This document shows, piece by piece, positions 1,222 to 47,606 of a stretch of 64,000 nt of DNA. The notes below the pieces were generated by a model, which made no database searches, was not told where the DNA came from, and worked only from the letters and a program-made list of their open reading frames with translations. The position numbers and the translations under genes were made by a program. This DNA comes from Acidimicrobiia bacterium (lineage in GTDB: Bacteria; Actinomycetota; Acidimicrobiia; Spongiisociales; ZC4RG35), in the NCBI GenBank assembly GCA_965215185.1, contig OZ244034.1, positions 896,001-960,000 on the forward strand, written 5' to 3'. Each line of letters opens with the position of its first letter. The first letter of the stretch is position 1.

Positions 1222-1329
1222 AGAGAACCTAACCAGGGTGAACCTGCGTTGCTCAGCCCAAGAGGACTCTCCTGGGCACTCTAAGACGAGCAAGATCCGT
1301 GTGACAGATACTCTGGGAATATCTGTCGT
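1222..1329 (-). repeat. Inverted, diverged copy of the shared leader at 15977/30221, ending in dyad site 1 (1301-1329)
   Basis: aacctgcgttgctcagccca...ctctaagac...ccgtgtga aligns to the reverse complement of ~16000-16090. Dyad site: GTGACAGATAC-TCTGGGA-ATATCTGTCGT. Confidence 0.7.
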
Positions 1330-1414
1330 GCCAGGTGGCCCATTCCATCACAACTGTCTCCTACAGCGCTGGCGCGCTGGCCGAGGACTGTGAGACCGTA
1401 TCGTCGTTTCCAGC

Positions 1415-1676
1415 CGGCATCGTCTCTACCGAGGCGGGCATCGACAAGCCAAAGCGGCGCTGTACCGAGTAGCCATAGTACGAATGCGATTCCACCAACC
1501 CACCATCGACTATGTCGCTTGCCGCACTGCCGAGGGCCTCTCCCAAGAGGACATCATTCGCTGCCTGAATCGGTTCCTCGCCCGCGACGTCTACCAACGC
1601 GTCATGGCGGACCACCGAACCCAACAACGGACCACCCCCACCCCCTGAACCCAATATTTGACTTTAGGGGCGTCAA
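1415..1676 (+). mobile_element. IS110-family transposase C-terminal remnant and right end
   Basis: Translates RHRLYRGGHRQAKAALYRVAIVRMRFHQPTIDYVARRTAEGLSQEDIIRCLNRFLARDVY, followed by ttgac...taggggcgtc, typical of actinobacterial IS110 ends. Confidence 0.8.
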
Positions 1677-1805
1677 CGCCATCATGGAATCGTTTTGGGC
1701 TCGCATGTAGGTCGAATTGTTGGACCGGCAGCGCTGGCGGACCCGTATTGAATTCGCCAACGCTATCTTCGAGTACCTGGAGATCTTCCATAACCGGCAG
1801 CGAGT
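1675..1805 (+). mobile_element. IS3-family transposase OrfB C-terminal fragment
   Basis: NAIMESFWARM*VELLDRQRWRTRIEFANAIFEYLEIFHNRQR, with an internal stop. Confidence 0.8.
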
Positions 1806-1883
1806 AGAAGGCATCCTCGGGAACGTCAGCGAACCTACCGGGCTGCGCGAATGCCCCACCCCATGGCACAACTTCGTAACAGT

Positions 1884-2130
1884 AGAGATCCGCTGTTTCA
1901 TCCGGTGAGCGGTGTCCGGGTTTTTCGTGCCATTGCGGTGCGAGACAGGCCATGACATCCGCGGTGGTGATTAGGTCTACCCGCTTGTTCCCAAACCGGG
2001 GATAAGCGTAGGTCCGAAGGCTTGACCGCTAGTGCTCTTCTGACTTGCCGCCCGGTTTCCACTTGGCGGCGTGAAGTCGGATCACTTTCTTGGTGGCCTG
2101 GCCAAAGGTAGGCGCGTTGCGGGCACGGGA
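1884..2130 (-). pseudogene. Internal fragment of the same P4-like integrase
   Basis: Nucleotide near-match to ~25454-25700 (MACLAPQWHEKP; cccgcttgttcccaaaccggggataagc). Confidence 0.85.
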
Positions 2131-13315: not shown

Positions 13316-13317
13316 TT

Positions 13318-14572: not shown

Positions 14573-14629
14573 GAATCGAACGGCAGAAGCCCGCATACAT
14601 GGACGTTCAGACGGGGACACCGAAAGTGT

Positions 14630-15217
14630 GCACGACCGGAGTCTTCGCACCCGGTTACGTGTTCTGCGTACGTGTTCGCCGACTGGAAACAGCCCCTCTT
14701 CCGCTACGTCGGACCCGACGACGACGGCACCCCAAATAGCAGACACCCTCGCCTGCCTCGACCGTGCCCGCCCACGCAACAAGTTCGACACCCCAGGATG
14801 CTCGACAACGAAACCTACCGCCAAGCGTTCGACGCCTGGGAGTCCGCCCGCAACGATGTTGTCAACAAGTGGAACCATCTGGCTGACAAAGCCAACCTCG
14901 AACCCCGGATCCCACCAGCCCTCACCCGAGCCGCCGACATCGTTCGCTCCCACGCTCCCCCAACCTTGACCCAAGACCAGATCGACGGAGCAATCGACAC
15001 CCTCCACGCCCCCTACTCCCAACGCACCATCCGAACCTTCCGGGCCGCGATGAAAACCACCCAAGAGCCCGCCGAACAGGCCAAGAAGATACTTGAGATC
15101 ATTTGTGGCTTGGGACTAGAACCCTACGTGCCACCCAAACCCCTACCCGAAATCACACCAGACGATGTCTACCTCGTCTGCTGGGTAGCCCTTGTCCCCG
15201 AGGGCCCGACTCCCTGA
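14630..15217 (+). pseudogene. Frameshifted C-terminal remnant of a larger protein, probably a helicase-associated tail
   Basis: Segments GYVFCVR / IADTLACLDRARP / AFDAWESARNDV...PLPEITPDDVYLVCWVAL fall in different frames. The family assignment is from memory only. Confidence 0.4.
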
Positions 15218-15364
15218 TGATGAAAAGTCAGTGTTGAAGGCGACGAGTACGAATTGGGTGGATCGTGGAGCCACGTCGTCAGCGACGGGTAGATGGTTTC
15301 CGGACATCCTCCCATGAACCTGACGCCTTCTGGCTACCCCGGGAGGAGGCGTGGTGGACACCGG

Positions 15365-15480
15365 ACCCGGTGGCCTGGCCGTTGAGAGCAGCCCGGGCGG
15401 CGGCCTGGGCGTCGGTGACATCGGTCTTGCCGAATCGGCGGCGGAGCTGACGGTTCGGGCGGTTCACTTCCACCACCTGG
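15365..15480 (-). mobile_element. IS110 transposase N-terminal (DEDD) fragment
   Basis: VVEVNRPNRQLRRRFGKTDVTDAQAAARAALNGQA. Confidence 0.8.
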
Positions 15481-15544
15481 ACACCGAGGGCAGGGCTGCA
15501 CGGATGGCTCCAGGAGAAAGCCAGTCACCTTGCTCCCGTTTACT

Positions 15545-15573
15545 ACGACAGATACTCTGCGAATATCTCGCAT
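15545..15573. repeat. 29-bp dyad site 2
   Basis: ACGACAGATAC-TCTGCGA-ATATCTCGCAT; same family as 1301, 15977, 26240 and 30221. Confidence 0.65.
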
Positions 15574-15976
15574 GGCGTTTTCATGGTCGGGGGTGGTTGG
15601 GTTTGTTTCGAGGTTGTATGTGTTGTTCTTGTCTGGTGTGGTGGCGGTGGTGGGTGGCATGGCCGGGTTGAACCGTGCCGGGCTTCATAGAGGGTTGGTT
15701 GTTTGGGCGATTTGTGGTGTGGTCGGGTTGGTTTGATGGTAGGCAGCATGGAAACTCACGGGACCTATTTCAATAGCGAAGACATTTCTGACGGTACAAT
15801 GACGATCCGTATGGACTATGGGGCACTCAACCAGCTGGGCGGCATGGTCTGGACCGATGCTATTGCCGAGATGAACCTGCGCACTTGTGAAGTGACAGTT
15901 ATCGACTACGGATTCGAGTAAACGGTCATTCATAGAACTAACACCCAAAGTTAGATCAAGGTTTTAGTCGCCGGTC

Positions 15977-16166
15977 GCGACTGATATTCCATAAATATCC
16001 ATCACACGGTTCTGGTCTTAGAGACCTGAGGCAACTCCGTCTGGGCTAAGTAACGCACGTTGGCGTGTTGCGGTTCTGTTCATGTTCTCATTCAAATGCT
16101 CTGGGTGTTGTTGTGAGCCGAATATGATATCACTGTGATGTATGTGTGATATTGGGTGTTGGCGGT
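15977..16166 (+). repeat. Shared ~190-bp leader, copy A, beginning with dyad site 3
   Basis: Aligns throughout with 30221-30410 (cacacggttctgg..ttagagacctgaggcaactccgtctgg; tcactgtgatgtatgtgtgatattgggt). Confidence 0.9.
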
Positions 16167-16469
16167 CAACAGGATACGCGGTGGATTGCTCTCAGACGGT
16201 TCTGCGACCTCTACGAGACCGGCGAGTTGCCCGAGTACCACGACGTCGTCGACACCATCATCGCCTGGTCAGACGAGATCCTCGCCTGGCACCACAGCGA
16301 CCGGGCCTCCAACGGCCGCATCGAGGGCATCAACAATCTCCTGCAAGTGCTCAGAAGAACTGCCCACGGGTTCACCAATCCGGCCAACTTCGAAGCCCGC
16401 GGCATCCTCGTGACATAATGACCCCAACCGGTGCCAGCAACCCTCAATCCCACGTTTACGCGAAGGGCC
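16167..16469 (+). mobile_element. ISL3-family transposase 3' fragment with right end
   Basis: TIIAWSDEILAWH...SNGRIEGINNLLQVLRRTAHGFTNPANF; terminal cgaagggcc. Confidence 0.85.
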
Positions 16470-16505
16470 CCCTGCTGCTATGGCTATTATTGCTCCAAAT
16501 CAGAA

Positions 16506-19500
16506 ATGGGTGAGTGCTTGAATTCAGGCGAACCGGCGCTCACGGTGTTCGTCCCGCGGCCGGGCAAGCGGGCACACACGAGGCGGGCGTCAGCGATCTT
16601 CGGCGTGCTAGGGGCGCTGTTGGTGTGGGTCTTCTGCGGGGTCGTGGCCCTGCAAACGCCGCAGGCACAAGCTCAAAGTTGTCCTGGAGACGCTCCGACG
16701 CCGACGGCTGTGACTGTGACGGCTGTCCCGGTCGTGGTCGCATCAACCGCCGCGGAGTATTTCGTCCTCTACGCGCGCCTCGACGGCGACGCAGCGTCGG
16801 AGGTGCTGGTCGCTGTTGTCCGCGGCCAAGCCGGCACGACGACCCTCTCTGAGAACGTTGAGGCCCTCCCCGCGGAGCGCTACCGCGTCGAGAAGTACTT
16901 GGTGTCCGACCCCGCCGACGTCGACGGCGACTGTACCGACGACATCACTGAACTCGACAACCCCACCAGCATGAATCCGGTCAACCCCGCCGTCACCGTG
17001 GCCCTGAACGACGGCGCGATCATCATCCAAGACGACGCAACCTTCGATGCGCTCTCCGTTGATTTGAGGACCCGCCGATCCTTCAAGTTCATCATCGTCG
17101 GCCTCTACACAGACCGGCCAAGCATCTATTTCGCGAATTCGAACACCCACGAAACACACCTGCAACTTGCGACCGCTCTGGGCCTCGACTTCACCGGCGT
17201 CGTGCCGGGTGATCTCAACCACGTGAGCGAGCTTCCCGCAGGCAGTGACCGGGAGGATCTAGAGGACATTTTCTATATCCATCTGCGCTTCCTGGACCCT
17301 TCCGCCAGTGTCCTGCACCGAATCTATTCCTTGTTTGCAGCCAATATGCCCGTGGTAGAAGACAATCTGTTCTTGCATCTCACCAACGATAATCTCAAGC
17401 ACCTTCAGTCCGAGATGCCTGCCTTGAGAGAGTCTCGCGTCGACGTGCTGTACTTCGACGACCTCTTTCCCGGGCAAACGTTTCAGATATTGAACCCCGG
17501 CGTCGGGTACGGCAGTCTGCGGGTGCTGGATCCCGACGATCGACCCCATTCCCGAGACATAGTCATATATGAGGCGCTGCCGAACGACCTGCCCCCGGTG
17601 GCTGGCATTATCACCACGGTGCCGCAGACGCCGCTGTCGCACGTCAATCTGCGCGCCGTGCAGAACGGTGTCCCCAACGCGTACGTGCAAGACCTGCTCG
17701 ACGACCCCGACATAGCGGCCCTTCTGGACAGCTACGTCCGTTACGAGGTGACCGACGGGGAGTGGGATGTGCGGGCCGCGACTCCCGAGGAGGTCGACGC
17801 CCACTTCGCGTCACTGCGGCCCGCGACCGCGCAAGTGCCGCAGCGGGACCTGTCGGTGACGTCGATCACGGCGCTGGAACAGGTCGGCTTCGACGACTGG
17901 GACGCCTTCGGGGTCAAGGCAGCCAACGTTGCCGTCCTAGGCAGGCTCGGTTTCGCCGAGGGCACCGTGCCCGACGGATTCGTGGTGCCCTTCTACTTTT
18001 ACGTCGAGTTCATGAAGGCCAACGACCTCTATGCTCGGGTCGACGAGATGCTGGTCGATCCTGATTTCCAGACGGACTTCGACGTCCAGGACGACATGCT
18101 TGATGACTTGCGCGACGACATCAAGGACGCAGTCTCGCCGCAGTGGATCATCGATGCACTCACGCAAATGCACGCATCGTTTCCCGAGGACATTTCTCTG
18201 CGCTACCGGTCCAGCACCAACAACGAGGACCTGCCCGGATTCAACGGCGCCGGCCTGTACGACTCAAAGACCCAGGATGCAGAGGAGACCGAGGAGGACG
18301 GCATCGACAAGTCTCTCAAACAGGTCTATGCCAGCCTGTGGAACTTCCGGGCCTTCACTGAGCGTGAACTCCACCGAGTCGATCACACCAAGACCGCCAT
18401 GGGCGTGCTGGTCCACCCCAACTACAGCAACGAGCTCGCCAACGGTGTCGCCGTCAGTTTCAACCCCATCGCCGGCACGTTCGACCGCTACTACGTGAAC
18501 ACCCAGATCGGTGAAGACCTCGTCACCAATCCCGAAGACCACTCGATCCCGGAGGAACTGCTGCTTGGCCAGGGCAGCGTGTACACCGTCCTGGCCACCT
18601 CCAACCAAGTTGAGCCCGGGCAACTCCTGATGAGCGGTGCCCAAGTGATGCAACTCGGCGAGCATCTCGCCGTGATCCACGACCACTTCGAGCAGTTGTA
18701 CGCCCCCGCGGCCGACGAGCCGTACGCCATCGAGATCGAGTTCAAGATCACCGAAGACGACATCCTCGCCATCAAACAAGCCCGACCCTGGATCTTCCCC
18801 GGCACCACTGCCACGACCACCACGACCACCACGACCACCACGACCACCACGACCACCACGACCACCACGACCACCACGACCACCACGGCCACCACGGGCG
18901 GAGGCGGCGGACGCAGTGGTGGAGGTGGAGGCGGACGCGGTGGTGGAGGTGGAGGCGGACGCGGTGGTGGAGGTGGAGGTTTAGATGAGGGAGGCAGTGA
19001 TGAATTACCGCCCACAGCCTCTGAACTGTTCGAAGACATCGACCCGGGAGTGTGGTATGAGCAAGCAGTGACGTGGATGCTCCTCCACAAAGTCACCTCC
19101 GGATGTTCCACCACCATGTTCTGTCCCGACGCCAACCTCACCCGCCAACAATTCGTCACGTTCCTCTGGAGAGCAGCCGGCCGACCCACCCCCACCTACC
19201 AAGGATCAGAAGCCTTCACCGACGTAGCAGAAGGGATCTACTCGGACCAGGCCATCGGCTGGGCAGTCTCCAACGAAATCACCGTGGGATGCACCCCAGG
19301 CACCTTTAGTGATCCTGACTGGGAGTTTTGCCCAACGGATCACGTCACCAGAGGACAAATGGCCACCCTCCTCTACCGACACGTAGAAGCCGACTATGTT
19401 GGCACAACCCTCCCATACACCGATGTGCAACCAGACCGATACTACGCGGAAAGCATCACCTGGCTCACCGACTTCCAAGCAGTCCCCGGATGCGGACCAA

Positions 19501-19622
19501 CCCTGTTTTGCCCCAACCGAGACGCCACCCGCGCCGAAGCCGCACTCTTCATCAACGCAGTAGCCATCCGACCCCACATCTGGGGAGAAGGCAACACCAG
19601 TTTCATACCCCAACCAAACTAA
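16506..19622 (+). CDS. Secreted protein with PEP/pyruvate-binding (PPDK_N-type ATP-grasp) domain, Thr/Gly linker and C-terminal SLH cassette
   Basis: Signal-like RRASAIFGVLGALLVWVFCGVVALQTPQAQAQ; FGVKAANVA, VPDGFVVPF, RSSTNNEDLPGFNGAGLYDS, KQVYASLWN, IEIEFK..IKQARP; SLH repeats (TRQQFVTFLWR, TRGQMATLLYR, TRAEAALF). Start uncertain. Confidence 0.85.
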   Translation: MGECLNSGEPALTVFVPRPGKRAHTRRASAIFGVLGALLVWVFCGVVALQTPQAQAQSCPGDAPTPTAVTVTAVPVVVASTAAEYFVLYARLDGDAASEVLVAVVRGQAGTTTLSENVEALPAERYRVEKYLVSDPADVDGDCTDDITELDNPTSMNPVNPAVTVALNDGAIIIQDDATFDALSVDLRTRRSFKFIIVGLYTDRPSIYFANSNTHETHLQLATALGLDFTGVVPGDLNHVSELPAGSDREDLEDIFYIHLRFLDPSASVLHRIYSLFAANMPVVEDNLFLHLTNDNLKHLQSEMPALRESRVDVLYFDDLFPGQTFQILNPGVGYGSLRVLDPDDRPHSRDIVIYEALPNDLPPVAGIITTVPQTPLSHVNLRAVQNGVPNAYVQDLLDDPDIAALLDSYVRYEVTDGEWDVRAATPEEVDAHFASLRPATAQVPQRDLSVTSITALEQVGFDDWDAFGVKAANVAVLGRLGFAEGTVPDGFVVPFYFYVEFMKANDLYARVDEMLVDPDFQTDFDVQDDMLDDLRDDIKDAVSPQWIIDALTQMHASFPEDISLRYRSSTNNEDLPGFNGAGLYDSKTQDAEETEEDGIDKSLKQVYASLWNFRAFTERELHRVDHTKTAMGVLVHPNYSNELANGVAVSFNPIAGTFDRYYVNTQIGEDLVTNPEDHSIPEELLLGQGSVYTVLATSNQVEPGQLLMSGAQVMQLGEHLAVIHDHFEQLYAPAADEPYAIEIEFKITEDDILAIKQARPWIFPGTTATTTTTTTTTTTTTTTTTTTTTTTTTATTGGGGGRSGGGGGGRGGGGGGGRGGGGGGLDEGGSDELPPTASELFEDIDPGVWYEQAVTWMLLHKVTSGCSTTMFCPDANLTRQQFVTFLWRAAGRPTPTYQGSEAFTDVAEGIYSDQAIGWAVSNEITVGCTPGTFSDPDWEFCPTDHVTRGQMATLLYRHVEADYVGTTLPYTDVQPDRYYAESITWLTDFQAVPGCGPTLFCPNRDATRAEAALFINAVAIRPHIWGEGNTSFIPQPN
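18804..18980 (+). repeat. In-frame microsatellite linker: ~8 x CCACGACCA (poly-Thr), then GGTGGAGG-rich poly-Gly
   Basis: Directly visible. Confidence 0.9.
18973..19622 (+). repeat. SLH anchor cassette, copy 1 of 3 (others ~36628-37280 and ~42627-43277)
   Basis: Near-identical DNA between copies, e.g. cccgacgccaacctcacccgcca.caattcgt.ac.ttcctctggagagcagccggccgacccacccccacctaccaaggatcagaagccttcaccgacgtag. Confidence 0.95.
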
Positions 19623-19815
19623 GGGCTCCTCCGACAGTACTTCCCCAAAGGCACCGACCTCAGCAGACACTCCAGAGGCGACCTGGACGCTGTCGCCGCA
19701 GCACTCAACAGTCGACCCCGCAAAACCCTCGGCTGGAAGACCCCCGCCGAAACCCTCAACGAACACCTACACTCCCTAAAACAAGACACTGTTGCGACGA
19801 CCCCTTGAATCCACC
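19623..19815 (+). mobile_element. IS30-family transposase 3' end
   Basis: [14 protein letters not shown]...[16 protein letters not shown]; end tgttgcgacgaccccttgaatcc. Confidence 0.9.
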
Positions 19816-20105
19816 TTGGGCGCCGTGGTCGGAGTGGTGGACCAGTCCCGACTGGGGTCGGGGCCGACGACGCCATCTTGCCATCTCGAACGCGTCGCAG
19901 ACTATCTGTGCTCGGATATGGTTGGCTATCGACCATCCGATCACTTCTCGGTTCCAAGCGTCCATGACCACCGCCAAATACACTATGCCCCCTCGGGTGG
20001 GGTGCTGGGTGATGTCCGCCAGCCACAGCCTGTCAGGTTCGGTGGGCGAGAACTGTCGGTCGACCAGATCAGCTGATACTTCTCCGACGCGTCTGTGGCG
20101 CCGAT
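19816..20105 (-). mobile_element. IS3-family OrfB (rve) fragment
   Basis: DLVDRQF...WLADITQHPTRGGIVYLAVVMDAWNREVIGWS...LVHHSDHGAQ. Confidence 0.9.
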
Positions 20106-20117
20106 AGGTGGTCTTTC

Positions 20118-20170
20118 GGGACATTATGCGCCTATATGGGACACTAAACCCGCGGACGTCATCTCCACCG
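20118..20170 (+). repeat. att-like end sequence, copy 2
   Basis: 45/53 match to 1161-1213; ends GACGTCATCTCCAC. Confidence 0.7.
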
Positions 20171-20505
20171 ATCACTGGTTTTCCCTGTTCTCCTTCCTTA
20201 AGGTTCCTACGGGGTACGCTGGGCTTGGGTGACCGGCGACAACAAAACGGCCGAGGCCCCCCAGTCGTTGCCGCAGGCACCGATGCAGCCGTTGAACTCG
20301 ACGAACAGCCCATCCCAGCCGTCGGTGACATGCAGCATTCCGTCCCAGAAACTGTTGGCACCTGAAGGCACCGAAGTCCTCGAAGGCGTTGCACATGGCG
20401 CATCGGATGATCCGGCAACACCGGCCCCTGACCCGACGACAGGGCTAGCCGGGGAGAAGCGAACCACACGACCCATAGCTTCGAGTACGCCAACCACCCA
20501 CTATA

Positions 20506-20545
20506 TTGTGGGTGTAGACCGTGGTTTGTGGGTGTAGACGGTGGT
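20506..20545 (+). repeat. Tandem 20-bp direct repeat upstream of the SLH-CAP gene
   Basis: ttgtgggtgtagaccgtggt / ttgtgggtgtagacggtggt (19/20). Confidence 0.8.
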
Positions 20546-20742
20546 TAGGGATATATTTCACACATCCGTCCCATATGTGCAATAACCTGAGGCTGCCGAG
20601 CCCTGTAGGTGAACGACCCGTTTCCGTCCGCCGACCTGTTGGTATTGTGCGGTCTGGTTTCGTCTGTTGGGAGGGGTGTTTGGTGGGGTGGGTTAGGTGA
20701 TGCTTTGGCCCGGGATTATCCTGGCTTCCCTGTGAGAATGGT

Positions 20743-23490
20743 ATGAGGTTGACCCGCTCTAGTGGGCGTTTGTGGGTTGTGGCTGCGCTGGTGCTGGCCG
20801 CCTCGTTGGTGGTTCCTGCTGTTTCTGTTGTAGCTCAAGGCGGGTTCTCGGATCTTGATGAGGCGGGTTCTCATCGGGCTGGGGTTGAGGGGCTAGCGGA
20901 GATGGGAGTGCTGGAGGGCACTGACTGTGCTCCGGGGGAGTTCTGCCCCGGCGATGCTTTGCAGCGTTGGGTGATGGCGGTGTGGCTGGTCCGGGTCCTG
21001 GACGGTGCCGATCCTGGTTCATCCGGTACGCGTTTCGCCGATGTTGACTCGGATGAGTGGTGGGCGCCTTTTGTGGAACGTCTCGCGGTGCTGGGAGTCA
21101 CAGGGGGTTGCGCCACCGGCCCGGCTCGGTATTGCCCTGACGATTCGGTCACTCGCGCTCAGATGGCCACTTTCCTCACTCGAGCTTTCGGTCTCGAAGC
21201 TGCGCCGCCGTTCGGGTTTGTCGACGTTGAGGGCAACACACACGCCGGGAGTATCGATGCGTTGGCGCGGGCGGGGGTCACAGCAGGTTGCGCTACCGGC
21301 CCGGCTCGGTATTGCCCTGACGATTCGGTGACCCGCGCTCAGATGGCCACTTTCCTCACCCGAGCGATAAACAGAGCCGCTCTTTCGGTCGGACTCGAAT
21401 CCCCAACGGGGCGGACTGTGGCTGGTTCCTTTCAGGTGGGGGTCTCCTTCCGCCGGCCGGTGACCGGCTTCGGTCTGGATGATGTGAGGGTGGTCAACGG
21501 TCGAGCCACCAGCCTGGCGGGTTCTGGATCCGACTATGAGGTGACAATCGTCCCAGCGGCTGGGGGAACGGTGGTTGTACGGATACCCCGAGGCGCAGTT
21601 CGTGATACCGCTGGGAGTCCGAGCCAGGCGTCTGGGCTGTTGGTGAGGACTTTCGGGTCTGATGGCCATCGGGATGGTCCTGGGTTTGATGTCTGGGACC
21701 GGGACGTGGTGGTGTCAGCGTATCTGGCGGAGTTCGAACGGGAGCAACCAGACCCAGGTTTCACAGGCAACGTCGCCGAATGCGATGCGGGCACCACCAG
21801 CCAGGCCTTCCGGGACAGTGTGGTGCAGCGGGTCAACTGGTACCGGCAGATGGCAGGCCTCGACACCGTCACCGAGGATCCCTCCCGGTCCGCCGCGGCA
21901 CAGCGGAAGGCTCTGATCATGTCCGCCGCAGGAAAGCTGTCACACCACCCGCCACCCGATTGGGTTTGCTACACCCAGGATGTCCCCGGAAGGGGCGGTG
22001 AGAATCTTGGTCTCGGTTCCGCCGGGGTGTTCGCCGTCGACAGGTACATGCAAGACACAGGCGCCAGCAATCTGGCGGTCGGGCACCGCCGGCAGATCCT
22101 GTCCCCGTTCGTGGAGGAGATCGGCACCGGCAACATCTACCCCGAGGCCCGCCGTTACCGGACGACCAACGCTATGCACTTCGGGTACGACTACTCCACC
22201 GTTGCCACGGTTCGAGAGCAGCGCGGTTTCGTGGCATGGCCCCCAGCAGGCTACGTACCCGCCGAAACCGTGTGGGGACGATGGTCATTCCAACTACTCG
22301 TACCAGCCGACTTCGCTCAGGCCACAGTCACCGTCACAGACAACTACGGTCCCATACCGGTAGCAGTCATCAACCGGAGATCGGGGATCGTCTGGGCTGT
22401 GCACGGCGACTGGAACTCAGAGAAGCTTCCTGGGTTCCCTGACCGCGACTACTGCTACACGGTGACCATCAGCAACGTGAGAATCGACGATAGGGCTCAA
22501 ACTCCTTACCAGTACGCCACCTGCCTGGGTGACCTCGGTTCGGGAGCTGGCGGTGGTGCGCCCGTATTCCTGGCGTGGTCACCCGACAGCGCCCAAATCG
22601 TGTACCGGCACAACGGCGGGGTCTGGACCGTCAACGCGGACGGCACCAGGCAACGACTGATTCTCCTCTCCGGCTCGCCGAGGTGGTCACCCGACAGGAC
22701 CCAAATCGCGTACGGGGCCGACGGAATCTGGGTCATGAACGCGGACGGCACCAACCAACAACAACTCACCGAATCCGGCTCCTACCCGGTGTGGTCACCC
22801 GACAGCACCAAAATCGCCTACAGGGGCAGCGGAATGTGGACCGTCAACGCCGACGGCACCAACCAACAACAACTCACCGACCAAGGCGCCCCCTACCCGG
22901 TGTGGTCACCTGACGGAACCACAATTGCCTACGGCCGCTACCAAAAGGGAATCTGGACCGTCAACCCCGACGGGACGAGCGATCAACAACTCACCGAATC
23001 CGGCTACTCCCCGGTGTGGTCACCAGACGGCACCAGAATCGTTTACCAGACGTTCTACGAGATATGGACTATCAACACCGACGGCACCAACCAGCAATCA
23101 CTCGCCAAAGGAATAGACACTTGGAAAGTATCACCCGACCGGACCCGAATCGTTTTCTCCTCCTACTCCCCGTCGGACTCGAGTTCCTCCTCCCCATCGG
23201 ACTGGGGTATCTGGATCATGGATACCGACGGCACCAACCACAAACGACTGACCACTAACCGAGCATCCCACCTGACATGGTCACCCGACGGCACCCAAAT
23301 CGCCTACAGCCGCTTCCAAAGGGGAATCTGGACCATCAACACCGACAGCACCAACCACAAGCAACACACCACCCACGGAGGCAGACCGGTATGGTCACCC
23401 GACGGCACCCAAATCGCCTACGACAACGGGAACAACGGAATCTGGATCATGAATGCCGACGGCACCAACCAACATCAACTCACCAACTAA
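20743..23490 (+). CDS. Secreted protein: N-terminal SLH repeats, Ig-like domain, CAP (SCP) domain, TolB-like PD40 beta-propeller
   Basis: Signal peptide; YCPDDSVTRAQMATFLTRA x2; VNWYRQMAGL..LSHHP..GENL..GHRRQIL (CAP); multiple PVWSPDGTQIAY..IW..NADGT repeats. Confidence 0.9.
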   Translation: MRLTRSSGRLWVVAALVLAASLVVPAVSVVAQGGFSDLDEAGSHRAGVEGLAEMGVLEGTDCAPGEFCPGDALQRWVMAVWLVRVLDGADPGSSGTRFADVDSDEWWAPFVERLAVLGVTGGCATGPARYCPDDSVTRAQMATFLTRAFGLEAAPPFGFVDVEGNTHAGSIDALARAGVTAGCATGPARYCPDDSVTRAQMATFLTRAINRAALSVGLESPTGRTVAGSFQVGVSFRRPVTGFGLDDVRVVNGRATSLAGSGSDYEVTIVPAAGGTVVVRIPRGAVRDTAGSPSQASGLLVRTFGSDGHRDGPGFDVWDRDVVVSAYLAEFEREQPDPGFTGNVAECDAGTTSQAFRDSVVQRVNWYRQMAGLDTVTEDPSRSAAAQRKALIMSAAGKLSHHPPPDWVCYTQDVPGRGGENLGLGSAGVFAVDRYMQDTGASNLAVGHRRQILSPFVEEIGTGNIYPEARRYRTTNAMHFGYDYSTVATVREQRGFVAWPPAGYVPAETVWGRWSFQLLVPADFAQATVTVTDNYGPIPVAVINRRSGIVWAVHGDWNSEKLPGFPDRDYCYTVTISNVRIDDRAQTPYQYATCLGDLGSGAGGGAPVFLAWSPDSAQIVYRHNGGVWTVNADGTRQRLILLSGSPRWSPDRTQIAYGADGIWVMNADGTNQQQLTESGSYPVWSPDSTKIAYRGSGMWTVNADGTNQQQLTDQGAPYPVWSPDGTTIAYGRYQKGIWTVNPDGTSDQQLTESGYSPVWSPDGTRIVYQTFYEIWTINTDGTNQQSLAKGIDTWKVSPDRTRIVFSSYSPSDSSSSSPSDWGIWIMDTDGTNHKRLTTNRASHLTWSPDGTQIAYSRFQRGIWTINTDSTNHKQHTTHGGRPVWSPDGTQIAYDNGNNGIWIMNADGTNQHQLTN

Positions 23491-23491
23491 C

Positions 23492-24470
23492 TGACCGCAT
23501 CGCCTTTGTCAGCTACGGCGCCATCCATAATTGCTAAACCGGACGGCTCCGAACCTCAACGTCTTACCCCAGACAACTCCAACCAGGGAGATGACTTCCA
23601 AGGCGACTTCAATCTTGCCTGGCACGACTCCGATCCGAGTTGGTCCCCAGATGGAACCAGGATGCTGTTCAGCAGCACCCGCACAGGTGAAAGCGAAATA
23701 TTCGTCATCGACCCCGACGGCCAGAACGTTCAACAACTTACTATGAGGACAGGTGGCAGCAGTCCCAACTGGTCGCCCGACGGTACCCGGATCGTGTTCT
23801 CACGAATCGAGAACTACTTCACCAGCAAGTGGCGCTACAACTTCGATGAGACCGAAAACGTGTTCATCATCGACGCCGACGGAACTGACATCCAGAGGCC
23901 TACGTACTCTGGGGGCTCGTCCCCAGTTGGTCGCCTGACGGCAGGCTGATCGCTTTTCACAGGGTTGTTGACGGGAACTACCAAGTATTCGTGACGGCTC
24001 CCGACGGCTCCGACGGAAGGCAACTCACCACATCCGGCGGCTCGGACGCTAGCTGGTCGCCTGACGGCAGACAACTGGTCTTCAACGGTGAAGGCGAGAC
24101 ACTCGTGATGAACCGGGACGGCACGGATATCCGCCAATTGACTACCTTCGGTAGTTCCAACGCCCATTGGTCGCCCGACGGCCAGCGCATCATTCTCGAG
24201 AGCCAGCATCTCTACAAAGAGCCGATCACCGATATCTATGCGGAGTTCGAAAGCCACGGCATCCTTTCTATGCGAATCGACGGCAGCGAGGTCGTCCGTA
24301 TTAGTGACGGTGCTTACTCTCCGGTGTGGTCGCCGTCTGAGTGGCGCGTAAGAGATGCAACCAGGCAGACCCTCCGTCTGAAGCAGGCAACGATCGGTGA
24401 TGTTCACGCGTGCGGGTTGGAAACAGGCGGGACGGTGGTTTGTTGGGGAAACAATGACTTGGGACAAACT
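23492..24470 (+). pseudogene. Frameshifted PD40-repeat protein remnant ending in one RCC1-like repeat
   Basis: ORFs 23506..23949 and 23991..24506 carry WSPDG repeats in shifting frames. ATIGDVHACGLETGGTVVCWGNNDLGQ is cut by an IS3 end. Confidence 0.8.
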
Positions 24471-24610
24471 GGAGTTCCCCCGCTTTTCCGGACACGTATT
24501 CTGTGATCGTGTGAGAGGCCGTGTGGTCTCTTTGGAAGGAGTTTTGAATGCCTGCTCCTTATCCGGAAGAGTTCCGGCGTAGAGCCGTGGATCTGGTACA
24601 TGAGAGCGGC
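24470..24610 (+). mobile_element. IS3-family left end and OrfA start
   Basis: tggagttcccccgcttttccggacac terminal repeat; RBS ggaagga then MPAPYPEEFRRRAVDLV. Confidence 0.8.
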
Positions 24611-24788
24611 GAATCCGTGTCTGCGGTGCCTCGTCGGCTGGGGTGATGGCGATCATCACAGTAGCACAGTGCCCAACATTGGTCCTAGACCTCCAAGAGT
24701 AAGTCAAGACCTCTCAGGGAAACGCAGACACCCCACCGCTCCAGTCCTCCTAGAGGTTCTAACGAACGTACCCGCCCTCAATTCGTGG

Positions 24789-25967
24789 CTAGGAACGGTT
24801 TGCCTTCAAGTTGTCTAGGTATCTGCTCCATTGTTCCATGAGTTCGCGGCGTCTTTCTAGGAGGTCCGTTCTGGCGTAGGCCTTTTCTACGGCGTTTCTG
24901 ATTTCGTGACCGAGGGCCCGTTCCGCCAATTCGCGGTCTGCGCCTGTTTCTCCGCACCAGTCCCGAAACGAGCTTCGCATCCCGTGAGGCACACAGCCGA
25001 CATTGTTCTCTTTGCAAAGTTTGCTCATGGTGGCATTGCTAAGCGTCCGTCCGGTTGGTGATGGGAAGATCAGGCCATTGCCGCCTGACCGCTGGTGTGC
25101 TGTGTCGAGAACCGCCAGAGCCCCGGTGCTTAGAGGCACCCGATGCTCTCGCCGTGTTTTGGTCCGCTCGGCTGGGATGGTCCAGATTGCTGTGGTGAGG
25201 TCGATCTCGTCCCATATGGCGTTTCTGACTTCACCACTTCTGGTGGCGGTAAGAGTCAGGAACTTGAACGCGGCGATTGTTGCCCAGTGAGCGTCGGTTG
25301 CTTCGACCGCCCGAACAGCTGCGCCGACCATTTTGTGGGGTAGGGCTTTCATGTGTAGGGGTCGTTGGGTGTTGGAACCCAACGCGGCGGTGATACGGTC
25401 GTCAGCGGGATTGTCGTCTCGGAACCCCTGGGCGATGGTCCACTTCATAACAGCAGAGATGCGCTGTTTCACCCGGTTAGCGGTCTCCGGTTTGTCGTGC
25501 CATTGTGGTGCGAGACAGGCCATGACATCCGCGGTGGTGATTAGGTCCACCCGCTTGTTCCCAAACCGGGGATAAGCATAGGTTTGGAGGGTTGACCGCC
25601 AGTGCTCTTCGGACCTTCCGCCCGGTTTCCACTTGGCAGCGTGAAGCCTGATCACTTTCTCGGTGGCCTGACGAAAGGTGGGCGCTTTGCGAGCACGGGG
25701 GTTGCGGCCTTCTTCGACGGCCTGCCTGTTTCGGAGAGCCCTCTGGCGGGCTTCCACCAGAGTTACTGCCGGGTAGCTTCCCAGCCCGAGGTTGGTTTCT
25801 TTTCCGTTGATCCGGATTCTCTGCACCCAGGCTTTGGAAAGCCGTCCTTCGATCTTGGTCGGTTTGACCATCAGGCTCAGACCATGACCTCCTCGACCGT
25901 CGCCATAGCGACCAGGTCGGCTTAGACTCTTGACGAAAGTGGCTGAAAGTGTTTTGGGTCGGTTCAT
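24789..25967 (-). CDS. Intact P4-like tyrosine integrase (arm DNA-binding domain plus catalytic domain), 392 aa
   Basis: Starts MNRPKTLSATFVKS after RBS gagagg. Catalytic residues are present: ATRSGE, TK, PHGMR, LGH, AY. Confidence 0.95.
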   Translation of the reverse strand: MNRPKTLSATFVKSLSRPGRYGDGRGGHGLSLMVKPTKIEGRLSKAWVQRIRINGKETNLGLGSYPAVTLVEARQRALRNRQAVEEGRNPRARKAPTFRQATEKVIRLHAAKWKPGGRSEEHWRSTLQTYAYPRFGNKRVDLITTADVMACLAPQWHDKPETANRVKQRISAVMKWTIAQGFRDDNPADDRITAALGSNTQRPLHMKALPHKMVGAAVRAVEATDAHWATIAAFKFLTLTATRSGEVRNAIWDEIDLTTAIWTIPAERTKTRREHRVPLSTGALAVLDTAHQRSGGNGLIFPSPTGRTLSNATMSKLCKENNVGCVPHGMRSSFRDWCGETGADRELAERALGHEIRNAVEKAYARTDLLERRRELMEQWSRYLDNLKANRS

Positions 25968-26195
25968 CCTCTCGTTTCCCTTCCCGCTATGCTCGGAACT
26001 GACGGGTTCATTGTCGATGGATTTCCCTGTTAGCTGTCGGTACCGATACCACTGTTTATACCATTTAAGGGTAGTGCGCTTGGCTGACGCCTCCTGACAC
26101 CGCCTGACACGACCCATAACCACAAATAGGCCACTACCTGGGCAAACACAGGCCCAGGGAGACGAATTGAACACGATTGAAACCCAATCAGCGTA

Positions 26196-26209
26196 GACGT
26201 CACCTCCAC
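26196..26209 (+). repeat. att-like core, copy 3 (GACGTCACCTCCAC)
   Basis: ~230 bp upstream of the intact integrase, the same relative position as copy 1. The upstream acctgggcaaa is also shared with copy 1. Confidence 0.6.
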
Positions 26210-26239
26210 TCAACTAGAACAGCCTCCTTTTTCCCCGCT

Positions 26240-26268
26240 ATGACGGATATTCTGGGAATATCTGGGGT
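26240..26268. repeat. 29-bp dyad site 4
   Basis: ATGACGGATAT-TCTGGGA-ATATCTGGGGT; the left flank CCCCGCTATGAC is identical to that of site 5. Confidence 0.65.
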
Positions 26269-26269
26269 T

Positions 26270-26612
26270 GTGATCTGCTTGTTACTCGCGTTGGGTTTGG
26301 TTGGTTTCGGTCTGGATCAGTGGCTCTCGGCAGCTAGTAGCGACAGGTTCGCTGATGTGCCAGTGGATCATTGGGCGAATTACTCGGTTGGATGGGCGGT
26401 GAACCAGCGGATAACCAGTGGGGTGAGCGCCACCGAGTTCGGAGGTTCCCGGACGCTTACCCGCGAACAAATGATCACCTTCCTCTACCGCGCAAAGGAT
26501 CACTGACCGAGGGGTCTTTGGGAACTGACATCTATCAGGATGTGCCCGGTGACCGAAGCAAAAGGGGCTAACTTGCCGATAGGGTGGGCATTCGACCAAG
26601 GTGTCACTGGTG
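26270..26612 (+). pseudogene. Truncated SLH-domain secreted protein
   Basis: Signal-like hydrophobic stretch, then RFADVPVDHWANYSVGWAVNQRITSG..TLTREQMITFLYR*, then a degraded second SLH (YQDVP..IGWAFDQGVTG). Confidence 0.75.
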
Positions 26613-26783
26613 AAGCTCGAACACGCCGACCTCATTAGGTGGGGGGCTGGGACCCAACGTTCCGTCCCTTGACACAGCATCATCTTGGGAGGCCGAATAC
26701 TCGCGAAAGTGCCACACATGCCATTTTCAACGTGCCACTGATCGAGCCGTCTGACCCAATCGGTGGTATGAGAAGGATTGCCC

Positions 26784-26893
26784 CTCAGTTGTCCAGGTAG
26801 CGGCTCCGATTGTCCATCAGTTGGCGGCGTATTTCTAACAGGTCTGTTCTGGTGGAGGCCTTCTTGACGGCGTTTCGGATTTCGTGGCCGAGA
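26784..26893 (-). pseudogene. C-terminal remnant of a fourth copy of the P4-like integrase
   Basis: LGHEIRNAVKKASTRTDLLEIRRQLMDNRSRYLDN* versus the intact LGHEIRNAVEKAYARTDLLERRRELMEQWSRYLDN. Confidence 0.85.
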
Positions 26894-26930
26894 AGGATGT
26901 TGTCAGTGGAACATCCACTGACAACATCCT
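26894..26930. repeat. Perfect 17-bp inverted repeat with 3-nt loop
   Basis: aggatgttgtcagtgga-aca-tccactgacaacatcct. Confidence 0.9.
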
Positions 26931-27180
26931 ATGGTTGACGACCATCCGGTCCAGGTTGATCGCTCTGCCTACTCCTCAGCGAGTGAGAACAGCCGTTCAG
27001 CTATTCGCCGGTGAGGGAATGGTCGACGTGTACTCTCTGGTAGAGGCGATGCATGAGCACCGTCAGTTCTCCTTTGTGACCGGTGATGACGGCAAGAACC
27101 GGCTGTCGCCCACCCCTCGGGCGATGCCATTGGCTGCCGCCTATCCTGTTGCCTCGTCGGTCATTTCCCGGTGGCCGTTG

Positions 27181-29667
27181 TCAGAGGCTGGGAGTCGGGT
27201 GGTGGCTGTCGCCGCCGAACTCTTGCCTCCGCCAGCGATGGTACAGCGCCCAGAGCACCAGCAGCGGGGGAAGCACCACGAACGTGGCGATCAGCGCCAA
27301 CAGGATGGTGACCGCGGTGAGCAGGCCGAGTTGCCTCATCGGATCGAGCGGCGCGAACAGGAGTGTCAACAGTCCGAGAGCCGTGGTGAGAGCGCTGGCC
27401 ACCAGCGCGCCGCCGGTGGTGGTCATCGCTCGTTGCATGGCGTCCCGGATCCGGCCCGACTGCTTTTCTTCTTCCAGGAACCGGTGGGTGAGGTGGATTG
27501 TGTAGTCGACCCCGATGCCGATCGTGAGGGCGGTGATCAAGGCCGTAACCATGTTGTAGGAGATCCTCATTGCCCACATGGCGCCCAGCACCCAGATCAG
27601 AACCACCGCGATGGGGATGATGGCGATCAGTCCTAGAGTGGGGCGAAACTGGGTGAGGCCGAAGTAGAGCACCAGGATGATCAAGGCGGCCAGAGTGGTG
27701 AGGCTTACGCTGAGCACCTGGCTGGCGGTCAACTCCTCGGTCACCAGGGCGATGAGCGAGTCGCCACCGGTGATTGTGATCTCCGAGGTATCCCCTCCCC
27801 ATAGCGTCTCGAGTTCGGCGATCAACTGCTGCGAAGCCTCGATACCCCCGACTGTGACCGGTACCTGGAGGATCGTGCGGTCGGAGCCTTGGGCGCGGAA
27901 GTCCACCACCTTGGAAAACCCCACCGGATCGGCGTTCTCGAGAAGCACCCAGGCGGCGCGCACCTCTTCGTCGGTTGCGAAGACGTTGAGGTTCAAGTCG
28001 GCGTATGCGGCGGCGAAGGCGGGGTCGTAGTTGTCGCCCGGCTGTTCGCTGTCGTTGATCCAGTCCGCTAGGAGCGTCCCCGCCGACGCCGACGGAGGAC
28101 CGGCGACACCCTGCGGTCTCCTGCGGGGATCGGCGAGAGTGGTGTAGAAATCGAACAGGTCACGAAGGGTCCGGACGGTGTCCAGATCGGCTTCGACGAG
28201 GATGGTCATCGTCGAGGCGCCACCGTTGAAATTTTGTTCCAAGAATTCGATGTTTTTCTCCGTTTGGGAGCCCTTCGGCACGAAGTCCTTGAGTGCGAAG
28301 GTGGTATTCAGACCGATGGCGGCTATGGCGGCCAGGATCGTGACCACGATGGCGCCGCCCAGGATCGGCAACGGGCGACGCACGATGGTGGTCGCCACTC
28401 GCGCCAGGGCTGCTCCGGCGCCGGGGATCGTGTCGGCGACCGGTCTCGCCGCCAATGGCTGTCCTCGGGCGGAGCGCCTTCGGTCCAGCACCAGCCGGGC
28501 GGCGGGCACGAAGGTGGTCATCACGATCCACCCCGACAGAACGCCGATACCGGCCACTATGCCAAAGTCGGCAACGGGCTCGAACTTGCTGGTCAGGTTG
28601 GTGATGAAACTGACCGCGGTCGTGCCCGCCGCCAGCAGGACCGGCACGCCCGAGAACCTGACCGCCTCACCGACGGCCACCCCCGGCGCATCCCCACCCG
28701 GATCGTCCTCCCGCGCCAGCGCCTCCCGGTAACGCCCGGTGATCTGCAACGCATAGTCCACGCACAGCCCGATCAGAAGCACCGGCACCAAGACGATCAT
28801 GATGTTTTCGGGATCAACCAGGTCGGCGCCTCCGGGCGACAGCCATGCCTGGGCGCCGAACGTCCAGAAGATGGTCAGGATAAGGCCGACGATGGCCAAC
28901 ACCACGTCCGAGCCGGTACGGTAGAAGGCGGCCAACAGCACCATGATCACCACCAGTGCGATGCCCATGAGCAGGAACAGGCTCGACCGGCGAGCCTCCC
29001 TTCCTTCCGTGTTGCTGTTTGCCTTGGTTATCACCGACACCGCCAGCGGGGCCAGTTCCGCGGATTCCGCGATCTCGTGGGCCCGCAGTTGCGCGGATTG
29101 CAGGCCCAGGGGATCGCCGGCGTCGTTGAGGATGATCAGAGAAAGCCCGGCGATCGGTGTCCCGTCGGCGTCGCGAGAGACGAAACGAGCCAGTCCGGCG
29201 TTCGCCTCGGCAAACTCGGGGACGCTGACCACTCGCCGAAGGACCACATCCAATTGGGCGTCGGAGACCGTGGCCAGGTCCAATCCACCGGCAGCCAGAA
29301 GGCGCTCGATAATAGGTACATACCCAAGCGCCGCTTCGTCCACCACGAATGTCTCGACCTGGGGGTCGCTTCTGATCGTGTTCTGCAGACCCCTGATCAG
29401 CCGCAGGGAATCGGCCGCCAGAACATCGCCCTTGGCCAGGATCTGGACAATCTCCACACCCGCGGCGGCCGGAAAACTCTCCCGGATGGCCGAGGAGGCC
29501 TCCGCCAGCTCACTCTCGGCGGGCAGGAAAGAAGCGGTGGCGTCGATAGGCGCCGCAGGGATGTCCTGCACCGCGAACCCGGCGAGCAGCACCGCGGTGA
29601 TAAGGCCCACGGCCGCCAGAACCAGTTTCGGGGTTCTCTGTATTCTGCGGGCCTGCCATCCGAACAT
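27181..29667 (-). CDS. MMPL/RND-family exporter
   Basis: Two membrane halves with IGLCVDYALQI and IGIGVDYTIHL motifs; 828 aa. Confidence 0.9.
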   Translation of the reverse strand: MFGWQARRIQRTPKLVLAAVGLITAVLLAGFAVQDIPAAPIDATASFLPAESELAEASSAIRESFPAAAGVEIVQILAKGDVLAADSLRLIRGLQNTIRSDPQVETFVVDEAALGYVPIIERLLAAGGLDLATVSDAQLDVVLRRVVSVPEFAEANAGLARFVSRDADGTPIAGLSLIILNDAGDPLGLQSAQLRAHEIAESAELAPLAVSVITKANSNTEGREARRSSLFLLMGIALVVIMVLLAAFYRTGSDVVLAIVGLILTIFWTFGAQAWLSPGGADLVDPENIMIVLVPVLLIGLCVDYALQITGRYREALAREDDPGGDAPGVAVGEAVRFSGVPVLLAAGTTAVSFITNLTSKFEPVADFGIVAGIGVLSGWIVMTTFVPAARLVLDRRRSARGQPLAARPVADTIPGAGAALARVATTIVRRPLPILGGAIVVTILAAIAAIGLNTTFALKDFVPKGSQTEKNIEFLEQNFNGGASTMTILVEADLDTVRTLRDLFDFYTTLADPRRRPQGVAGPPSASAGTLLADWINDSEQPGDNYDPAFAAAYADLNLNVFATDEEVRAAWVLLENADPVGFSKVVDFRAQGSDRTILQVPVTVGGIEASQQLIAELETLWGGDTSEITITGGDSLIALVTEELTASQVLSVSLTTLAALIILVLYFGLTQFRPTLGLIAIIPIAVVLIWVLGAMWAMRISYNMVTALITALTIGIGVDYTIHLTHRFLEEEKQSGRIRDAMQRAMTTTGGALVASALTTALGLLTLLFAPLDPMRQLGLLTAVTILLALIATFVVLPPLLVLWALYHRWRRQEFGGDSHHPTPSL

Positions 29668-29831
29668 GGCAGACTTCAGTAGCCCTCGGGGGGCGCGCGG
29701 TCGAGGCCGGTCGGGGTGGGACTCGTTGCGCTCGACATACCTCTATGTTAAATGAGAAACATGAGTCCGCCGGCATGAATCTCACTGATTTCTTGGACCG
29801 ACGGCACCACCCCACCCGCCAGTCGAAGCGG

Positions 29832-30215
29832 TCAGACTATCCGACCGCCGCCCGTCTCCACCAAGATGGTGACCGGCCCATCAATGACAAGGGACACTTC
29901 CATCATCACTCCGAAACGGCCCGTGGCCACCTCTATCCCTTCGCTCTGCAACGCAGCAACCACCTCGTCCACCAAACGCTCGGCCGGTTCGGGACGCGCC
30001 ACCCGGACGAAGGAAGCCCGGCGGCCCTTGCCAACATCCCCATACAGGGTGAACTGGCTCACCACCAACGCCGCTCCACCGGCGACGGCCAAGGCAAGGT
30101 TCATCTTCCGCTCTCGATCGGCGAATATCCGTAGCCCGGCCATCTTGGCTGCCGCCACCCGGGCATCGGTCACCGAATCCTCGTGGGTAACACCCACCAG
30201 AGCCAAAAGACCACC
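29832..30215 (-). pseudogene. dtd: D-aminoacyl-tRNA deacylase, 5'-truncated (lacks the MRAVVQRV N-terminus)
   Basis: LLALVGVTHED, LVVSQFTLYGD, TGRFG.MM.VSL..DGPVT. An in-frame TAG lies just upstream of RGGLL, at dyad site 5. Confidence 0.85.
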
Positions 30216-30220
30216 CCGCT

Positions 30221-30410
30221 ATGACTGATACTCAGCAAGTATCCGTCACACGGTTCTGGGCTTAGAGACCTGAGGCAACTCCGTCTGGCTAAGTAACGCA
30301 TTTTGGTGTGTTGTGGTTCTTTTCGTGTTCTTATTCAAATGCTGTGGATGTTGTTGTGAGTGGCATATGATGTCACTGTGATGTATGTGTGATATTGGGT
30401 TTGTTGCGGT
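30221..30410 (+). repeat. Shared ~190-bp leader, copy B, beginning with dyad site 5
   Basis: ATGACTGATAC-TCAGCAA-GTATCCGTCAC, then alignment to 16006-16166. Confidence 0.9.

Positions 30411-46217: not shown

Positions 46218-47606
<1,389 letters not shown>

Follow-up and report, generated by a model that had tools for sequence, protein, structure and literature searches.

Dispersed 29-bp dyads and a Xer-like recombinase gene as a candidate module-exchange system in an Acidimicrobiia genome

The 64-kb window analyzed here (G000:C1:896001-960000) lies on the single 3.12-Mb contig of an Acidimicrobiia genome, G000, and carries five related 29-bp dyads. Positions are window coordinates, with position 1 as the first letter of the stretch, unless they are marked as genome coordinates, which refer to the whole contig. 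A first-pass annotation had placed the dyads at positions 1301, 15545, 15977, 26240, and 30221 and proposed that they are sites for the shuffling of surface-protein cassettes. All five are present, with exactly the letters quoted there.

1301..1329, no strand, dyad site 1 (11-7-11, spacer TCTGGGA)
15545..15573, no strand, dyad site 2 (spacer TCTGCGA)
15977..16005, no strand, dyad site 3 (spacer TCCATAA)
26240..26268, no strand, dyad site 4 (spacer TCTGGGA)
30221..30249, no strand, dyad site 5 (spacer TCAGCAA)

A degenerate dyad pattern with two or fewer mismatches matches the window at just these five places (nine strand-hits); shuffled sequences predict 0.02 matches, and none of 100 shuffles reaches nine. 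A motif scan of the whole genome, which the annotation had proposed, finds 17 family members in G000 (16 plus one degenerate copy). The inner dyad pattern occurs 20 times genome-wide compared with approximately 4.5 occurrences expected from a composition estimate. The 17 dyads are clustered at genome 239–252 kb, 861–926 kb, and 2495–2505 kb, with single copies at 1470 kb and 1590 kb. All are intergenic by our own codon-usage gene calls, with the exception of site 4, which overlaps the start of a short SLH open frame. Fifteen of the 17 have the same orientation as judged by a weak asymmetry, the orientation being uncertain for the TATCCCA class. This shared orientation fits arrays built by integration better than it fits an inversion switch.

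The annotation had also described flanks shared between sites, and its comparisons hold. Sites 3 and 5 have a right flank of 189 bp in common (87% identity), and the same flank lies inverted to the left of site 1. CCCCGCT precedes the dyad at both sites 4 and 5, and the reverse-complemented right arm of site 1 equals the first 10 nt of the left arm of site 2. Sites 1 and 4, which have the spacer TCTGGGA in common, carry it in one orientation, 24.9 kb apart. Recurring flanks are assigned to numbered classes. The commonest, F1, is the upstream region of rec, a 308-aa Xer-like tyrosine recombinase gene that lies outside the window (genome 245472-246398) and reads away from the dyad; F3 is the leader that follows sites 3 and 5. 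The left flank of site 3 is a decayed copy of F1, the recombinase-side flank, and site 4 combines an F2-type left half with an F5-type right half. A 54-codon signal-peptide-like open frame (15572-15736) starts within the final bases of site 2.

1241..1300, minus strand, inverted leader-like flank left of site 1 (70% identity over 88 bp, dyad included)
16006..16166, plus strand, shared leader (F3) after site 3
30250..30410, plus strand, shared leader (F3) after site 5, ahead of a 2254-aa gene (30516-37280)

Just left of site 2, the contigs of all four public runs omit 120 bases (window 15365-15486), a population indel that lies away from any dyad.

Exact motif matches occur in 4 of the 31 relatives searched, all of one genus (4 of its 17 genomes, G000 included). 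The motif was not found in 27 of the 31, including 13 of the 17 genus genomes, and a reversed-pattern control gives none. Core-only copies of the dyad occupy 7–17 intergenic places per genome in this lineage. The four genomes provide a set of 47 dyads after removal of nine low-scoring G000 hits and of L009_5085 and L025_4519, which have no outer arms. The 11-7-11 layout holds in all 47, and arm symmetry reaches at least 7 of 11 positions in 42. Inverted 11-bp arms around a 7-bp spacer are the core architecture of tyrosine-recombinase sites, as the annotation had recognized. Five spacer classes cover 35 of the 47 sites and reappear in unrelated contexts. In G000, the TCCATAA spacer of site 3 is also that of the dyads at genome 246485 and 250529, and the TCAGCAA spacer of site 5 is that of the dyad at genome 873956. 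The variable arm position is complementary in 20 of the 47, close to the 17 expected (P = 0.22); because this position shows no hairpin-type covariation, a reading of the dyads as hairpins, in RNA or as attC-like DNA, was rejected.

Recurring flank classes are found in many pairings across this set (F1-F5, F2-F5, F1-F3, F8-F3, F10-F3, F1-F4, and F4-F7), which bears out the combinatorial flank modules of the annotation. In the aligned sites the outer arm bases mostly go along with their own flank, and each dyad consists of two half-sites, each inherited with its own flank. An operator, which the annotation had named as the alternative, would be expected before syntenic genes with unchanged flanks; a single 40-nt flank is common to 111 of the 1081 site pairs, and only 5 pairs have both in common. 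All-against-all BLAST used the 45 sites that have 2 kb of context (two of the 47 lack it). Alignment ends fall within 30 nt of the dyad center in 115 of 332 informative cases, compared with 5 expected for a uniform distribution, and 14 of 174 alignments cross the dyad. A second peak of alignment ends, at 1020–1050 nt, is the far end of the rec gene.

Individual synteny and homology breaks fall inside the dyads, in the spacer or at its edge, where the annotation had suggested looking for them. Site 5 matches its counterpart in a second genome of the set, G011, at 99% identity across the left flank, the left arm, and the initial two spacer bases; beyond these the two are unrelated. Site 3 and L013_3128 are identical rightward from the last spacer bases, and the left arm and left flank differ. 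Site 4 and L012_11663 are alike throughout from the inner left arm rightward. In L009_8117 and L018_2722 both flanks are alike, and the sole difference is five central spacer bases. Two modules that start at window sites have close relatives in G011.

26242..30248, no strand, site 4-5 module (SLH remnant, RND/MMPL-type transporter, truncated dtd)
26240-26506, plus strand, SLH remnant in the site 4-5 module
27181-29667, minus strand, RND/MMPL-type transporter in the site 4-5 module
29832-30206, minus strand, truncated dtd in the site 4-5 module
15970..19632, plus strand, module starting at site 3 (shared leader and a 1038-aa PPDK_N/SLH surface protein, 16506-19622)

Over 4007 bp the site 4-5 block matches G011 (L012 11651-15655) at 98.3% identity, and the outer flanks differ on both sides. 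The site 3 module is 97% identical to G011 L013 3107-6766 and is placed elsewhere in that genome. Island DNA is 96–98% identical between G000 and G011, compared with 87–88% for the core genes beside the 239-kb cluster; the islands have therefore been shared recently, and their module order has changed since. Site 5 marks the truncation of dtd, as the annotation had stated, and lies 9 nt past the point where the truncated paralogue loses homology to the intact dtd (genome 677185-677565). Nothing dyad-like is present in the intact dtd at the point of the break, and a natural secondary site as the cause of the truncation was rejected for this reason. At the 239-kb cluster, in every genome with the left core flank, homology of this flank stops approximately 380–470 nt short of the first dyad, and a search for an empty site there recovered no clean one. 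An 85-bp dispersed repeat in the same region (L026 9760-9843, G000 genome 239760-239843) has many copies in most genomes of the genus and looks like a miniature inverted-repeat transposable element or a repetitive extragenic palindromic element.

In the four genomes, 12 loci have F1 as the conserved link from a dyad to the rec 5′ end, and a dyad also lies upstream of rec paralogues at 53% and 59% identity. Full-length rec has the same distribution as the motif, 4 of the 31 relatives, with two further genomes that carry fragments only. Many rec copies are frameshifted or truncated, and each of the four motif-bearing genomes retains one or more intact copies; the intact copy of G000 is accompanied by frameshifted or truncated ones, none of them inside the window. 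Pfam assigns Phage_int_SAM_1 and Phage_integrase domains to rec, and the catalytic residues R154, K178, H251, R254, H277, and Y286 are the same in all eight aligned copies, an alignment that leaves out L012:4803-5711 and L019:6070-6990 with one in-frame stop each. Judged by these residues, rec looks catalytically intact. It scores 97 and 88 bits against the NCBIfam XerC and XerD models, which have cut-offs of 335 and 330, and is also far under the XerA cut-off.

The interval that separates the dyad from the rec start contains one accessory half-site, 92 nt from the dyad center. In the 47-site set, accessory half-sites occur at fixed offsets only (−92, or +79 to +81) and are carried by the rec-adjacent dyads and by a few dyads in relatives with an F1-like right flank (F7 in three of four). 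The fixed-offset half-sites make up 17 of the 21 extra half-sites when neighboring dyads are set aside, and shuffles predict 1.2. Approximately 50 nt past the rec stop, several loci have a short GTCACCCTC(C/T)ACC-like stretch that resembles a tRNA-Ala-type attachment (att) core, and flank F2 may be the F1 module minus rec. Two frameshifted rec copies (genome 3353-4211 and 2996699-2997557) have identical tblastn identities and scores, lack both the dyad and F1, and appear to belong to a longer duplicated stretch.

A scan of one genome per species returned 365 rec relatives, and 80 loci were kept. These include loci from Acidimicrobiia, Solirubrobacterales, Nocardiopsis, Nonomuraea, Streptosporangium, Acidobacteriota, Dehalococcoidia, and Chromatiaceae, the nearest being labeled 'Acidimicrobiia bacterium'. 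Within 310 nt before the gene, 60 of the 80 loci have a dyad in which 9 or more of the 11 arm positions match, a few of these plainly being chance GC-rich dyads. The dyad is accompanied by a third half-site, a median of 96 nt nearer the gene, in 38. The arm sequence differs by rec clade while the 11-7-11 geometry is constant, and this co-variation across phyla is the strongest argument that rec, and not an adjacent integrase, would read the dyad. A Tn3-family transposase (DUF4158) stands beside the rec homologue, divergent or just downstream, at several of the loci.

L088, L083, L091, L092, L100, L042: DUF4158 transposase beside the rec homologue
L065, L067, L069, L076, L090: DUF4158 transposase downstream of the rec homologue

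Searches with PF01526 and PF13700 find no Tn3 transposase in G000. An unrelated taxon with a 5-Mb genome, G031, has at least nine copies of the dyad cognate to its own rec, and three of these match over the dyad alone (G031:C1 4378364, 534281, and 69303). The G031 regions that were fetched each contain one dyad plus an accessory half-site, and one of them, L118, contains one decayed rec. A Nocardiopsis genome has a single cognate dyad, located beside rec. The difference between the multicopy G031 dyad and the single Nocardiopsis dyad indicates that site proliferation is lineage-specific, and the dispersed-dyad system of G031 may have arisen independently.

The dyads are probably the core sites of rec as a dedicated Xer-like recombinase, and recombination at them probably joined, swapped, and relocated gene modules. 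In the core, two 11-bp half-sites in inverted orientation would bind the recombinase, and the 7 bp between them would be the crossover spacer. The rec genes carry the full site, made of the core and the accessory half-site. Rec dimers would bind each core. Two cores with compatible spacers would meet by random collision and synapse, and their flanks would be swapped through strand exchange at the edges of the spacer. Direct repeats would give an excised circle able to re-enter at another core, inverted repeats would give inversion of the intervening segment, and repeated integration would build site-module-site arrays. The modules moved in this way would include giant SLH surface-protein genes with their leader, the ends of P4-integrase islands, and the transporter with the dtd fragment. 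Exchange by rec would proceed by excision and integration or by inversion between spacer-matched sites, and the system may still be active. Modules were most likely swapped both between neighboring loci and between related bacteria. Binding of rec at its own gene likely has a regulatory side role.

Several observations weigh against this interpretation. The window's five sites are all core-only dyads without an accessory half-site, and the single intact rec copy of G000 is 650 kb away. Most neighboring dyads have different spacers, which should hinder exchange by a tyrosine recombinase. The junctions at genome 909140/909343 that distinguish G000 from G011 are not at dyads, nor is the right end of the site 3 module; other mechanisms therefore also act, including P4-like integrases and insertion sequence (IS) elements, both of which surely contribute to the rearrangements. 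Because of kinship among the site pairs, fewer independent events lie behind the pair and alignment-end counts than their size suggests. In an ungapped continuity control many short flank classes lose homology 20–60 nt further out (52 continue and 69 do not), a control that is confounded by indels and short flank classes and was replaced by the BLAST alignment-end histogram. The Bacillus plasmid matches to rec are only 22–24% identical and are not annotated as TnpI, so that rec is at most a possible TnpI orthologue. Among the matches listed for six public runs from three studies there is no recombination product, circle, or alternative junction; no listed contig bridges a dyad to an alternative flank and no joint falls at a dyad (81 joints and 1377 loose ends in total). 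These runs are short Logan contigs of mixed populations and give no evidence either way on junctions.

Integrases of another family adjoin two of the window sites. Sites 1 and 4 lie just beyond att-like cores, as the annotation had noted; these are copies of the tRNA-Ala(CGC) 3′ end next to P4-like integrase genes, and the sites follow them at 103 and 44 nt.

24789..25967, minus strand, P4-like integrase (Arm-DNA-bind_3, Phage_int_M, Phage_integrase)
26196..26239, plus strand, flank class F2, a tRNA-Ala(CGC) 3′-end copy (26196-26209) plus 30 nt abutting site 4
1..1006, minus strand, decayed P4-like integrase paralogue (81% identity by tblastn, 11 stops in a one-frame reading)

The decayed paralogue is accompanied by a tRNA-Ala-like core at 1198-1211, and F2 has six copies in three genomes. 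The 24789-25967 integrase belongs to a separate att system with tRNA-Ala 3′-end cores and is not put forward as the enzyme that acts on the dyads. Across the genome, a single P4-like integrase family accounts for more than 20 copies or fragments, many adjoining tRNA-Ala(CGC) 3′-end copies. Cores of this type are located at window 1198, 20155, and 26196, and the real tRNA-Ala(CGC) gene is at genome c[1302999-1303074]. This distribution looks like repeated island integration and decay.

IS3, ISL3, and IS110 elements are abundant in these regions. An Rfam scan finds no family at or near any dyad; its sole match is an ALIL pseudoknot (RF01497, window 47147-47276, minus strand, 56.9 bits), an IS3-family frameshift signal that places an IS3-type insertion sequence at these positions. 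An IS110-family transposase gene (L009 13254-14546, minus strand) ends approximately 90 nt from the TATCCCA-class dyad L009_13164, and the right-flank class of this dyad, F7, is also found at L015_3420 and L022_4845. In G000, an open reading frame fragment at genome 860743-861087 is broken off 10 nt from the dyad at 861097 and was taken for an IS110-like remnant without a family search. An IS family may target these dyads.

The dyads could have an entirely regulatory function, as an operator or promoter element for island and surface genes that is bound by a dimeric transcription factor or by rec as an autorepressor and has no part in recombination. This is highly improbable. Homology stops at the dyad, which an operator within duplicated promoters would not cause; approximately half of the neighboring genes point at the dyad or end beside it; and none of the four dyads in 14500-31500 coincides with a sigma-70-like promoter. 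The restriction of the motif to so few relatives, even within the genus, means that it does not mark a core regulon. The regulatory explanation draws on the intergenic location of all 17 dyads, on the adjacent gene reading away from the dyad in the recurrent flank classes F1, F2, F3, F5, and F8, and on the lack of hairpin-type covariation, which fits duplex protein binding. Resolvase sites often overlap the recombinase promoter. A related idea, that dyads directly before an ATG are leaderless promoters, was suggested by several sites and dropped in view of the missing sigma-70-like promoters and the mixed gene orientation.

Two other explanations accept the dyads as recombination sites, past or present. 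The enzyme could be the P4-like integrase family or host XerC/XerD, both of which the annotation had put forward, the former as the 24789-25967 integrase. Six dyads do lie 30 nt from a tRNA-Ala-like att core by P4-like integrase genes or fragments (the F2 copies), and the low scores of rec against the XerC and XerD models are compatible with this assignment. Yet a dyad is found upstream of only 3 of the 12 integrase paralogues examined, these integrases have their own core in the tRNA-Ala 3′ end, the dyad changes in step with the rec clade in phyla that have no integrase of this kind next to it, and rec and the motif have an identical distribution. The near symmetry of the half-sites suits one recombinase more than it suits XerC and XerD, for which excerpts of a study of Acinetobacter pdif modules (PMC13141974) describe distinct halves. 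Nothing in the analysis points to host XerC/D, although host XerCD itself was not looked at. Rec is the better candidate, and an integrase or Xer enzyme in its place is quite unlikely. Unlikely too, if somewhat less so, is that the dyads are inert, left behind as resolution sites when Tn3-type transposons or integrated plasmids decayed, and that the rearrangements arose in other ways, such as through IS elements, integrases, or rare homologous exchange at short repeats. The absence of a Tn3 transposase from G000, the many damaged rec copies, the boundaries that are not at dyads, and the crowding of these regions by IS3, ISL3, and IS110 genes and more than 20 integrase fragments are all as a relic would have them. 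The dyads, however, are well conserved, as the arm symmetry shows, and each of the four genomes has retained an intact rec. Exchange has also been recent, since island DNA that is nearly identical in two species differs in module order at the dyads, and recent exchange fits poorly with inert sites. Partner sites share at most approximately 12–17 identical bases, which is too short for efficient RecA exchange.

The annotation's description of the cargo as surface cassettes stands in part. Several modules carry SLH proteins and the shared leader; the RND/MMPL transporter and the dtd fragment are cargo of other kinds. The leader of approximately 190 nt before the giant surface-protein genes is very highly conserved (window 16006-16200 and 30250-30440; L013 3143-3340 and 7170-7365). 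TGTGA/TCACA-like repeats occur in it, as does a terminator-like hairpin (16050-16071), and its four near-identical copies provide no usable covariation for an RNA structure. A 1065-aa gene further along the window (37490-40687, minus strand) has SLH domains at genome 936070-936570 and contains fourteen tandem copies of a 111-bp unit (window 37415-39268).

To our knowledge, site-bounded modules moved by Xer-type recombination have so far been described mainly on Acinetobacter plasmids. Integrons use a special integrase and folded attC sites. Probable recombination by rec at the dyads leads to a broader proposal, which we hold tentatively: a self-contained chromosomal system in which one dedicated Xer-like recombinase, derived from Tn3 or plasmid resolvases, acts on dispersed core-only sites with a small set of spacer 'addresses'. 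Such a system would excise, integrate, and reassort modules of several genes, above all those for giant SLH-anchored surface proteins behind a common leader, and would pass them from species to species within an uncultured Acidimicrobiia genus, in functional convergence with integrons and dif modules. If true, this would be a third route, in which a resolvase-type recombinase that shed its transposon builds and reshuffles chromosomal arrays through bare core sites, with very large surface proteins of uncultured bacteria as cargo. It would explain the patchwork of these islands and provide a concrete enzyme-site pair to test, and a compact 29-bp site with natural spacer variants could become a recombination tool.

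Among known systems, the one described here probably descends from TnpI/plasmid-type resolvase systems, functions most like the Acinetobacter pdif modules, and more loosely resembles integrons. The annotated genes closest to rec, with 41–45% identity over approximately 90% of the length, are listed as 'site-specific integrase' on actinobacterial plasmids; their carriers include pFAJ2600, a 5.9-kb Rhodococcus plasmid, whose integrase gene presumably serves in multimer resolution. Unlike the dyad system, these genes are single-copy and reside on small plasmids. With integrons the system shares a recombinase gene beside a primary site and arrays of site-bounded cassettes. It differs in having sequence-conserved duplex dyads and large multi-gene cassettes in both orientations. 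The integron-like character suggested by the annotation is not borne out by rec, which scores 42.4 bits against the integron-integrase model TIGR02249 (cut-off 265), or by the arms, which are conserved in sequence and have no structural covariation. Shufflons and surface inversion systems, such as Rci/sfx and Mycoplasma vsa/HvsR, likewise tie tyrosine recombinase sites to variable surface proteins. Here the sites lie between whole genes and not in the variable end of one gene, no single expression site was identified, and the intergenic location and largely uniform orientation, judged by that weak asymmetry, set the dyads apart from the shufflon also invoked by the annotation.

The TnpI-IRS systems of Tn4430 and Tn5401 are like the dyad system in that a small Xer-like tyrosine recombinase gene directly adjoins its site, and some rec homologues stand beside Tn3-family transposases. 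Excerpts of work on Tn4430 (PMC2847244) describe a palindromic core with accessory repeats between core and gene, as is also found here. In the same excerpts, IR1-IR2 of the IRS is the crossover core and DR1/DR2 impose resolution selectivity; TnpI acting on the bare IR1-IR2 core carries out relaxed, unconstrained inter- and intramolecular recombination, and symmetric Tn4430 cores yield both deletions and inversions (PMC2847244). The G000 recombinase and sites differ in standing without a transposon, in having one accessory half-site in place of DR1 and DR2, in their 11-7-11 layout compared with the 14-bp motifs and 4-bp spacer of Tn4430, and in the dispersal of core-only copies through the chromosome. 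The pdif modules, as described in excerpts of PMC13141974, are bounded by similarly short 11-spacer-11 sites in varied combinations and orders, with recurring spacer classes and with inversions and deletions between sites that have matching spacers. According to those excerpts, pdif sites are 28-bp (11-6-11) with distinct XerC and XerD halves, alternate in orientation, are plasmid-borne, and depend on host XerCD. The dyads, by comparison, have near-symmetric halves and a 7-bp spacer, which place them outside the pdif sites proper, and they are chromosomal, served by a single dedicated candidate recombinase encoded beside its own site, and associated with giant surface-protein cargo.

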